Positions 29,918-45,061 of a DNA stretch of 64,000 bases are shown here, one piece after another. Under the pieces are notes generated by a model. The model was given only the letters and a program-made list of their open reading frames with translations, made no database searches and was not told the origin of the DNA. Source of the DNA: Escherichia coli. GTDB taxonomy: Bacteria > Pseudomonadota > Gammaproteobacteria > Enterobacterales > Enterobacteriaceae. The stretch lies in assembly GCF_024502345.1 (NCBI RefSeq), contig NZ_JALDNN010000001.1; one strand, written 5' to 3'. Each line of letters starts with the position of its first letter. Within the stretch, counting starts at the first letter, position 1. Both the position numbers and the translations under genes were made by a program.

Positions 29918-29929
29918 TTGAGAAAAGGT

Positions 29930-30060
29930 TCGGGAGCAGGCCTGGTTTTCTCCCTCGCTCTGTAGGGAGAGGGCCGGGGTGGGGGTGATTGTTCGCACCG
30001 GTGCTGGTCTGTTCCCCTCACCCTAACCCTCTCCCCGAAGGGGCGAGGGGATGGTTCGTG
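29930..30060. repeat. GC-rich intergenic palindromic units (boxC-like)
   Basis: tctccctcgctctgtagggagagggccgggg ... ccctctccccgaaggggcgagggg. Confidence 0.5.
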
Positions 30061-30079
30061 TTAACGTTTAGTTTTATAC

Positions 30080-37889: not shown

Positions 37890-37969
37890 CCGGAAAGCGG
37901 GTCACAGATCTCGCTTCGTACCTAGCAGGCCTATTGACGCTGTTGCTTTTTCAACCTAGAGTAAAGGAA

Positions 37970-38112
37970 CAAGGGTAAGGGAGGATTTCTCCCCCCTCTG
38001 ATGAGTTGTTAGTAAGTCGGGAAACTTAACAGTAACAACACAACCAGTATGATGACGAGCTTCATCATAACCCTTTCCTTCTATAAGGCCCCTTCCTCGG
38101 GAGGGGCTTTCC
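37970..38112 (+). ncRNA. sibD: SibD antitoxin sRNA (approximate ends)
   Basis: promoter TTGACG-17-TAGAGT at 37934-37962; antisense to ibsD; terminator hairpin ~38088-38112; ends inferred. Confidence 0.7.
38009..38068 (-). CDS. ibsD: type I toxin IbsD (19 aa)
   Basis: reverse strand encodes MMKLVIILVVLLLLSFPTY*; not in the >=60-aa ORF track. Confidence 0.85.
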   Translation of the reverse strand: MMKLVIILVVLLLLSFPTY

Positions 38113-38344
38113 CGTTTCAGCCCCTTGCTGACTCCCCGATTGTTGATGAGCGCCGGACCCCGCGCAACGCTTTCCCTGAAGCAGTTTTGCCTTCCCCGAG
38201 CGGTCACGCAAAACGCTGCAACGTCCTGAGCATTTGCACCTTTTAGCGGAACGCAGATATAAAAAATCCCCGGCTTTTTGGGCCAGGGATATGTGTTAAT
38301 GAAACCTTCTTGACGCTGATTTTTTTTCAACCTAAAGTAAAGGA

Positions 38345-38488
38345 ACAAGGGTAAGGGAGGATTTCTCCCCCCTCTGATTGGCTGTTAATAAGCTGCGAAA
38401 CTTACGAGTAACAACACAATCAGTATGATGACGAGCTTCATCATAACCCTTTCCTTATACAAGGCCCCTTCTTCGGGAGGGGCTTTCC
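38345..38488 (+). ncRNA. sibE: SibE antitoxin sRNA (approximate ends)
   Basis: second copy of the ~375-bp unit; promoter TTGACG-17-TAAAGT at 38310-38338. Confidence 0.7.
38385..38444 (-). CDS. ibsE: type I toxin IbsE (19 aa)
   Basis: reverse strand encodes MMKLVIILIVLLLVSFAAY*. Confidence 0.85.
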   Translation of the reverse strand: MMKLVIILIVLLLVSFAAY

Positions 38489-40370: not shown

Positions 40371-41000
40371 TTACAATATTTGGGGCCAGGGATTGTTTTC
40401 CGCCAAATATCGCGTTGCAGAAAGTCGGCAAATAATTAACACTTTGTCTCCTTTAGTGAAAATTTTTCCTTCTTCAGGCTCCAGTAGTAAATAATGTATT
40501 TGGCCAAATTGATCGGTGAGTTTTCCTTCGCAGGGATTACCTGAAGTGGCTTGATGACCGGTAATTAATGCCATGCTACCAATATATTCTTCTTCTGTAA
40601 TAGCTGAACTATGGTCGCGTGGAATCCAGGGCGCAACTATTTTACCGGTATAATGCACCGCAATAATCGTAAACAGTAAACTGACAGGAACCACGAACAG
40701 GTTCGACAGTGGTGATTGCCAGACCATGATGCAGGCATGCTGCAACAGGATGCCAATAAGACCAAAAAAACCAGCCAGCAAGCAGAGAACGACGAGAGCT
40801 GGCAATCTTCCGATATTGAGATAATGAAGTGCCTGGCTAATATGACCTGTGGTTATGGAATCATAATGGTCAAGATGTGCATCAAGAGCACCGGAGAGCA
40901 TGTGACCGCAGATAAGCGCAAAAATTTCTAAAAGGCCGATCAACAGTACAAAGGAAATAGCGAAAAGATAAGGGGTATTATAGTCGGCGAATAAAATCAT
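40371..41000 (-). CDS. yqiJ: inner membrane protein YqiJ
   Basis: 209 aa. Confidence 0.9.
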
Positions 41001-41268
41001 ATGTCACTCCAATGTCCATTTAGTGACGCAATATTCACTTTGGGATAGTTTCCTTGCTTACATTTATCTTTGTTAATAATAACACACGTTAGAGAAGTTC
41101 TGGAAGAGAAAGTCTTTTAATATGGTTTTTTATTTTTCACTAAAAAGTGTGATCGGGGACAATATATTTACGCACGTTATGTTTAAAGGCACTACACTGA
41201 TTGGGGAATACTGAAATCAGAAAAAGCATATGGCCTTAAAAGGTATGCGATAACCGGAGGATGTGCTT

Positions 41269-41469
41269 ATGGATCATAGTCTTAATTCTTTAAATAATTT
41301 CGATTTCCTGGCGCGTAGTTTTGCCAGAATGCACGCAGAAGGTCGCCCGGTCGATATTCTGGCCGTTACTGGTAACATGGATGAAGAACATAGAACCTGG
41401 TTTTGCGCACGTTATGCCTGGTATTGCCAACAGATGATGCAAACCAGAGAACTTGAATTAGAACACTGA
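41269..41469 (+). CDS. glgS: surface composition regulator GlgS
   Basis: ATG at 41269 ([13 protein letters not shown]), 66 aa. Confidence 0.93.
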
Positions 41470-41503
41470 TATTACGGGCCGTCTGGCCCGTTTTTGTGTT
41501 GCT

Positions 41504-41803
41504 TTATTCTGCTTTATCAATAGGCGGGATAGCCGGAGGAGATTGAAGATCTGCTACCGAATTATTGCGCGCCTCCAGTTCACTGATGCGCTGCTCCAGT
41601 AACGCCAGTTTTTCACGAGTCCGTAACAGGACTTGCGTCTGTACGTCGAATTCTTCGCGGCTCACCAGATCGAGACGCGTCAGCTGCGCTTGTAGGGTTT
41701 GGCGGATTTTTTTCTCCACATCTTCCCCGAACTCCCTGATTCCTTTAGGCATTGATTCGTGAACCTGGCGAGCGATTTGCTCAATTTTTTTCGGGTCAAT
41801 CAT
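41504..41803 (-). CDS. ubiK: ubiquinone biosynthesis accessory factor UbiK (YqiC)
   Basis: internal ATG at 41803 with AGGGA RBS; [13 protein letters not shown]... Confidence 0.88.
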
Positions 41804-41924
41804 TGTAGTTTCCCTGTACTGATAGGTGTTGAGTGCCATTGTAGTGCGATAAGGGTAAGTCATAAACCAGAATTATGTGAAGCTATGCGTTGCTGCCGCT
41901 AATCATTAGCGTTATAGTGAATCC

Positions 41925-42080
41925 GCTTATTCTCAGGGCGGGGCGAAATTCCCCACCGGCGGTAAATCAACTCAGTTGAAAGCCCGCGAGCGCTTTGGGT
42001 GCGAACTCAAAGGACAGCAGATCCGGTGTAATTCCGGGGCCGACGGTTAGAGTCCGGATGGGAGAGAGTAACGATTCTGT
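41925..42080 (+). promoter_or_regulatory. FMN riboswitch (RFN element) in ribB leader
   Basis: conserved agggcggggcgaaattccccaccggcggta ... ggatgggagagag motifs upstream of ribB. Confidence 0.85.
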
Positions 42081-42176
42081 CGGGCATGGACCCGCTCACG
42101 TTATTTTGGCTATATGCCGCCACTCCTAAGACTGCCCTGATTCTGGTAACCATAATTTTAGTGAGGTTTTTTTACC

Positions 42177-42830
42177 ATGAATCAGACGCTACTTTCCTCT
42201 TTTGGTACGCCTTTCGAACGTGTTGAAAATGCACTGGCTGCGCTGCGTGAAGGACGCGGTGTAATGGTGCTTGATGATGAAGACCGTGAAAACGAAGGTG
42301 ATATGATCTTCCCGGCAGAAACCATGACCGTTGAGCAGATGGCGCTGACCATTCGCCACGGTAGCGGTATTGTTTGCCTGTGCATTACTGAAGATCGCCG
42401 TAAACAACTCGATCTGCCAATGATGGTAGAAAATAACACCAGCGCCTATGGCACCGGTTTTACCGTGACCATTGAAGCGGCTGAAGGTGTGACTACCGGT
42501 GTTTCTGCCGCTGACCGTATTACGACCGTTCGCGCAGCGATTGCCGATGGCGCAAAACCTTCTGATCTGAATCGCCCGGGCCACGTTTTCCCACTCCGCG
42601 CTCAGGCTGGTGGTGTACTGACGCGTGGCGGTCATACTGAAGCAACTATTGATCTAATGACGCTGGCAGGCTTTAAACCGGCTGGTGTGCTGTGTGAGCT
42701 GACTAATGACGATGGCACGATGGCGCGTGCACCAGAGTGCATTGAGTTTGCCAATAAACACAATATGGCACTCGTGACTATTGAAGACCTGGTGGCATAC
42801 CGTCAGGCACATGAGCGTAAAGCCAGCTGA
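42177..42830 (+). CDS. ribB: 3,4-dihydroxy-2-butanone 4-phosphate synthase RibB
   Basis: 217 aa. Confidence 0.97.
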
Positions 42831-43091
42831 AAACCGCTGCTTAATTTACTGCCTTAATCAAGAAACCGAAGTTGTAGCAGGCTTCGGTTTTTATTTTTCC
42901 CTGCTATGCAAGATGTTAATTCCGCTTCTCTTTCTATGAGAAAATTTCATTAATATCAGGCATTCTTTTTCATTATGATCAAAATCATATAATTGTTCCG
43001 TTATTATGCGACCATATGAATATATCCGAAAAAGGATATGTGAAATTTATGCGCTAAATGTTTAGTATTGTTAAATATTAAGGGTAAAAGG

Positions 43092-45024: not shown

Positions 45025-45061
45025 CAATTACCGGATGGCGAATGCCATCCGGCATCATTGA

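Follow-up and report, generated by a model that had tools for sequence, protein, structure and literature searches.

The empty glgS-ubiK junction of an Escherichia coli strain as the probable ancestral state of the Yqi-like fimbrial locus

Introduction

The closest described counterpart of the locus analyzed here is the fimbrial operon of K-12 named Yqi-like, which corresponds to ygiL-yqiGHI (b3043-b3048; Wurpel et al. 2013, PMC3559732); the same naming is used in PMC6033998. Yqi fimbriae, found in phylogroup B2, and Yqi-like fimbriae, found in phylogroups A, B1, D, and E, have been described as related and mutually exclusive (Wurpel et al. 2013, PMC3559732). The Yqi/EA-I cluster, with its 1,050-bp yqi gene, was reported to be present in ExPEC of the B2/ST95 type and to be lacking in both MG1655 and O157:H7 (Antão et al. 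2009, PMC2771359).

Here, we examine the region between glgS and ubiK in a 64,000-nucleotide stretch of E. coli DNA (contig NZ_JALDNN010000001.1 of assembly GCF_024502345.1), which is referred to as the window at its full length. Compared to the Yqi-like locus of K-12, the window has the same chromosomal position and holds the bordering genes glgS and ubiK as well as the glgS terminator. However, the operon is absent, with 73 bp in the window where K-12 has 6.6 kb, and the window ubiK codes for a presumably ancestral protein of 99 aa instead of the 96-aa form of K-12. The features of the region are collected in Table 1.

Table 1. Features at the glgS-ubiK junction and at the neighboring ribB-yqiD slot, in window coordinates.
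Feature	Position	Strand	Details
glgS (scoR) CDS	41269..41469	+	66 aa; NCBIfam NF002793 equivalog, 148 bits vs cut-off 105
Left flank, raised divergence from island-bearing genomes	41420..41500		about 15% in 41400-41500
glgS-ubiK spacer, attachment site of the Yqi-like fimbrial operon (K-12 type), here unoccupied	41470..41503		34 bp
glgS intrinsic terminator (predicted)	41474..41500	+	7-bp stem ACGGGCC/GGCCCGT, loop GTCT, then TTTTGTGTT
Segment without blastn match in K-12-type genomes	41501..41573		73 bp; covers the final 22 codons of ubiK and its stop
ubiK (yqiC) CDS, presumably ancestral allele	41504..41803	-	99 aa; NCBIfam NF047835 equivalog, 151 bits vs cut-off 100
Right flank in ubiK (codons 36-77)	41574..41700		13.5% diverged from K-12
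FMN riboswitch upstream of ribB	41925..42073	+	Rfam RF00050, 120.9 bits
ribB	42177..42830	+	TIGR00506, 288 bits; annotated in ECNB21-M121
Second unoccupied slot, ribB-yqiD spacer	42829..42973		5.5-kb Yqi/EA-I operon here in B2 strains

Results

The window has a contiguous glgS-ubiK junction

In the window, glgS and ubiK are convergent and exactly 34 bp separate their facing stop codons (TGA at 41467-41469 for glgS, TAA at 41504-41506 on the minus strand for ubiK), in agreement with an initial annotation of this DNA that placed the two genes about 35 bp apart without a fimbrial cluster between them. A tblastn search of the whole 64-kb window revealed no homologues of an usher, a chaperone, or a fimbrial subunit, and the four proteins of the K-12 Yqi-like operon, used as tblastn queries, had no match in it either, which sets the window outside the Yqi-like locus proper. 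No remnant of yqi sequence is present in the 34-bp spacer, which is identical, base for base, to that of Escherichia sp. MOD1-EC7003, a non-coli Escherichia, and to that of O157:H7; the spacers of ST131 and of other Escherichia species show one or two differences from it. Neither a promoter-like site nor an Rfam family was found in the spacer.

The RefSeq genome ECNB21-M121 is 100% identical to the window over the 1,201 bases compared (41000-42200) and carries the same annotation there, with the gene order hldE, ibsE, ibsD, yqiK, yqiJ, glgS, ubiK, FMN riboswitch, ribB, yqiD, and zupT. Two copies of SIB_RNA (RF00113) occur in the hldE-yqiK interval of the window, at 37934-38083 and 38310-38459 on the plus strand (140 and 151 bits); about 92% alike, they correspond to the tandem sibD/ibsD and sibE/ibsE type I toxin-antitoxin units, while ST131 has a single sib/ibs unit between hldE and yqiK. 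Elsewhere in the window, the bacA-cca spacer (29926-30075) contains a GC-rich palindromic repeat (…GGGAGAGGGCCGGGGTGGGGGTGA…CCCCTCACCCTAACCCTCTCCCC…). At this position, a REP/BIME-like element is found in K-12 and O157:H7, and the spacer of ST131 is shorter.

The same site carries the Yqi-like operon in K-12 and APEC O78

The initial annotation placed a fimbrial operon (ygiL-yqiGHI, interrupted by IS2) between ubiK and glgS of K-12. Comparison with MG1655 confirms this gene order: the two genes are not adjacent in K-12, and the MG1655 annotation reads glgS, yqiI, yqiH, a 5'-truncated usher gene (yqiG), IS2, ygiL, and ubiK. The IS2 copy of 1,331 bp lies inside the usher gene, flanked by a 5-bp target duplication (ATAAC), and is a later insertion; in APEC O78 the same operon is intact, with an usher of 834 aa. 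This intact island consists of four fimbrial genes only, with no integrase or mobility genes. Its GC content is 40%, against about 50-52% locally, which suggests, from composition, a foreign origin. No direct or inverted repeats of at least 9 bp were found at the island ends, and the site does not have the profile of an integrase- or transposase-borne genomic island (defined by flanking direct repeats, an att site or tRNA target, and a mobility gene).

The Yqi-like operon occurs in two allele classes, at least 99% and 90-95% identical to APEC O78, respectively. The two classes are about 5.5% apart. The most divergent gene between them is yqiI (8013-9077 of locus L030 compared with 9513-10577 of locus L001); where it codes for the N-terminal half of the adhesin, divergence reaches 18% per 300 bp, as is typical when adhesins diversify. 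Fragments comprising glgS, yqiI, yqiH, and the usher gene were also retrieved from metagenome bins labelled Collinsella sp. and Bacillota bacterium (L018, L023, L028, and L029), with 93-100% protein identity to E. coli; they are probably E. coli contamination.

A different operon occupies a second slot 1.3 kb away in B2 strains

Like Yqi-like, Yqi/EA-I is a four-gene operon (subunit, usher, chaperone, and adhesin) in the same neighborhood. However, it sits in the slot between ribB and yqiD, 1.3 kb off, and the protein identity between the two systems ranges from 38% for the adhesin to 59% for the subunit. ST131 has a contiguous glgS-ubiK junction and carries a different chaperone-usher operon between ribB and yqiD, consisting of genes for a fimbrial-like protein, an usher, and a chaperone and of an adhesin gene of 1,050 bp, whose product is annotated as 'pilus protein'. 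In this it agrees with the Yqi/EA-I cluster that Antão et al. described (PMC2771359). Other carriers include Nissle and APEC O2:K1, and all three of these phylogroup B2 ExPEC strains are empty at glgS-ubiK, their operon lying 1.3 kb away. The comparison with ExPEC genomes that the initial annotation had proposed as a check would be misleading, since B2 strains too are empty at this site, and the operon that has been studied functionally, Yqi/EA-I, is the one that they have between ribB and yqiD. E. whittamii and Trabulsiella have orthologous operons in this slot, with ushers that are 89% and 63% identical, respectively.

In the window, no four-gene Yqi/EA-I operon is present between ribB and yqiD. 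The alignment with ST131 extends up to 42828 and resumes at 42974, leaving 145 bp opposite the 5.5-kb operon, in a ribB-yqiD spacer of about 260 bp in all. The window belongs to a double-empty class with O157:H7, both Yqi-like and Yqi/EA-I being absent. Beside this slot, around yqiD, the window and ST131 are 19-24% diverged from each other. In the ygiD-ygiC spacer (~45027-45061 in the window), ST131 has a three-gene insert coding for an aryl-sulfate sulfotransferase, a DsbA/DsbL-like protein, and DsbI; neither the window nor K-12 nor O157:H7 has this insert.

Both states are frequent among complete E. coli genomes

All class counts refer to 5,426 complete E. coli genomes. The contiguous glgS-ubiK junction is present in about 2,062 of them (38%). 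Where it is missing, the match of a 1-kb junction-spanning probe ends at window position 41500. An operon of the K-12/APEC O78 type gives a match of any length in about 3,366 genomes (62%), and in 3,247 at a coverage of at least 80%. The operon at ribB-yqiD (EA/I-type) is found in 994 genomes, and about 1,114 (20.5%), including O157:H7, are contiguous across both sites when searched with a 4-kb probe. The sum of 3,366, 994, and 1,114 is 5,474 and exceeds 5,426, so that the classes are to be read as approximately exclusive, or some matches as partial or plasmid-borne. With 2,062 contiguous against 3,366 operon-bearing genomes, the initial description of a variable adhesin locus at which this strain is empty holds.

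The 3' end of ubiK differs between the empty and occupied states

In blastn comparisons of the window with K-12 and APEC O78, homology stops at 41500 and restarts at 41574. The K-12 counterpart of the intervening 73 bp measures 6,638 bp, of which 5,302 bp remain when IS2 and one of the two ATAAC copies are subtracted. The same break points are seen in K-12, APEC O78, and every sampled island-bearing genome. By this alignment, the occupied state differs from the empty one by a replacement and not by a clean insertion. The proteins differ accordingly in length: UbiK has 99 aa in the window and 96 aa, with a different C-terminal tail, in both K-12 and APEC O78. The tail of the window type is common to other Escherichia species and resembles those of Citrobacter and Salmonella (…PAPAIPPVDPQE).

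Divergence from the island-bearing genomes rises steeply toward the junction. On the glgS side, the 100 bp of the window next to the junction show about 15% divergence from K-12, versus 1% from O157:H7. On the other side, codons 1-35 of ubiK are identical between the window and the island-bearing alleles, while codons 36-77 are 86.5% identical, which is about as far as E. albertii (87.3%). In the tail, the identity between the window and K-12 falls to 47% at the DNA level (53% diverged) with the two sequences still aligned in register; because of this in-register alignment, the K-12 tail looks like a very diverged end of ubiK rather than unrelated DNA. The K-12-type ubiK (16079-16369 in locus L001) is a chimera, in which codons 1-35 are native, codons 36-77 are diverged, and the C-terminal tail is a different one.

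A search of 5.8 billion proteins with K-12 UbiK as query revealed no donor of the island: among the 120 best homologues, the last 19 residues of the K-12-type UbiK occur in E. coli and Shigella entries only. Two look-alike tails from distant genomes, NRPATPAAPEVLPPTEPHM and NRPAAAPVPAVVPPTEPQM, were discarded as donors, as hldE is the next gene after ubiK on these contigs, and neither glgS nor a fimbrial operon lies beside it. The diverged segment of K-12 ubiK has 74-86% identity to all of 14 sampled outgroups, none of which is closer to it than to the window allele; the two look-alike loci are left out of this comparison.

The contiguous arrangement is shared with other species

A scan for GlgS with one genome per species returned 27 loci, and in other species glgS and ubiK are adjacent at every locus that has both genes. 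These outgroups are E. albertii, E. whittamii, three Escherichia genomes of cryptic clades or without a species name (one of which has E. coli in its record title), nine Citrobacter, three Trabulsiella, and two subspecies of S. enterica, arizonae and diarizonae. The glgS-ubiK spacers measure 28-39 bp in them, except for 73 bp in S. arizonae, and their UbiK tails carry the motif of the window type (PPAIPPxD / PAPAIPPVD). Since all outgroups examined have the adjacent arrangement with the same hairpin core, this arrangement predates E. coli, the operon being derived. Judging from the outgroups, the empty glgS-ubiK state is ancestral and not a deletion, which makes K-12 the derived form. The term 'empty-site configuration' in the initial annotation is apt in that the site is unoccupied, and is refined here to an ancestral state instead of a deletion, as indicated by every outgroup examined.

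A conserved hairpin follows the glgS stop codon

The initial annotation had noted a short hairpin between the two stops. The string that it quoted, gggccgtctggccc, corresponds to positions 41476-41489, and the full stem-loop (ACGGGCC-GTCT-GGCCCGT) covers 41474-41491, inside the spacer. It was called by a terminator scan on the plus strand, and its 51-nt context folds with -18 kcal/mol (z = -3.7), a stability reached by none of 200 shuffles. The stem-loop has the geometry of an intrinsic terminator, with six G-C pairs among its 7 bp and a 4-nt loop, and the tail UUUUGUGUU forms a U-tract on the plus strand. On the minus strand the same stem forms, with the tail AAUAUCAGUG (GUAAUAUCAG), which is a poor U-tract and does not qualify as one for ubiK. 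The stem begins 4 nt past the glgS stop and lies, on the minus strand, 12 nt beyond that of ubiK.

Each of the 19 spacers examined from loci of the adjacent type, which represent four genera (Escherichia, Citrobacter, Salmonella, and Trabulsiella), contains the core CGGGCC-N4-GGCCCG at the orthologous position just downstream of the stop codon. In the island-bearing genomes, the hairpin is kept beside glgS, now between glgS and yqiI, with the loop changed from GTCT to TGAT. From these features we infer that the hairpin and its T-run (41474-41500) terminate glgS transcription, while for ubiK the hairpin may be at best a weak terminator or a stabilizer of the 3' end. Intrinsic terminators common to convergent gene pairs occur in enterobacteria. 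The window resembles them by its single GC-rich stem-loop between converging stops with a T-run on one side, but differs in having the U-tract on the glgS strand only, which makes a bidirectional function doubtful. In the spacers of Citrobacter sp. NCU1 and Awk 4, a symmetrical succession of A-run, stem, and T-run forms a bidirectional terminator.

Discussion

Our analysis very probably identifies the 34 bp between glgS and ubiK as the original, never interrupted junction with the ancestral allele, the operon present in about 62% of E. coli being a later, single acquisition. In the scenario that we propose, a 5.3-kb low-GC chaperone-usher operon (ygiL, usher, yqiH, and yqiI) would have entered the glgS-ubiK site once, by homologous recombination with a diverged donor and with crossovers inside glgS and ubiK, not by site-specific integration or transposition, and would have replaced 73 bp including the 3' end of ubiK. 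A single origin is inferred because the break points 41500 and 41574 are identical in all sampled island-bearing genomes, and the recombination route because the divergence of the flanks is steep and the island has neither end repeats of at least 9 bp nor mobility genes. On the plus strand, the stem-loop and U-tract would terminate glgS transcription and would represent the only functional element of the spacer.

Secondary loss, in which an ancestor had the operon and either deleted it or exchanged it, by homologous recombination, for an empty allele from another E. coli, is unlikely, even though the site lies in a stretch of mosaic divergence between lineages, with sharp identity switches on both flanks indicating that recombination moves alleles here, and the presence of the island follows no simple split among named strains (O157:H7 is empty, while O111:H8, K-12, and BL21 are occupied). 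A simple deletion could not restore the ancestral 22-codon tail of ubiK together with a spacer identical to that of Escherichia sp. MOD1-EC7003. Recombinational replacement, for its part, would leave exactly the ancestral allele, so that the identity of the sequence would be unchanged and, from one window, indistinguishable from uninterrupted descent. It is hardly conceivable that the operon is really present and was dropped by an assembly or collapse artefact, as the same contiguous junction is found in 2,062 complete genomes, 1,114 genomes match across 4 kb over both slots, the genome ECNB21-M121 is 100% identical over the 1,201 bases compared, and the ancestral tail of ubiK goes together with the empty state.

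A further alternative concerns the hairpin, which could belong to the mobile or repetitive elements, as a REP/BIME-type palindrome, or be an excision scar rather than a dedicated terminator. It is indeed GC-rich, palindromic, and intergenic, convergent genes of E. coli often have REP elements between them, and a different palindromic repeat is present in the bacA-cca spacer of the same window. Nevertheless, this origin appears very improbable: the hairpin is a single short 7-bp stem without the REP consensus, it matches no Rfam family, its position and core sequence are conserved across four genera, it is directly followed by a T-run, and it is retained beside glgS in island-bearing genomes.

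The variability of this locus has already been published, and the observation of an empty site is correct but ordinary. It places the strain among the roughly 20% of E. coli without Yqi-like and Yqi/EA-I fimbriae, like O157:H7, and the outgroup comparison fixes the polarity of the polymorphism, with K-12 in the derived state. For annotators, 'yqi' designates two operons that are distinct and sit in separate slots, 1.3 kb from each other, and the C-terminus of UbiK in the K-12 reference is non-ancestral and would have been made when the operon was acquired. UbiK has been studied in K-12 strains, i.e. in carriers of the chimeric form. A difference in function between the two UbiK forms (such as in how they assemble into UbiJ-UbiK2 or associate with the membrane), or a co-selection of the operon with the ubiK allele, is a rather remote prospect. 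The only mildly new point is that the chimeric ubiK of K-12-type strains would be a by-product of the acquisition of the operon.
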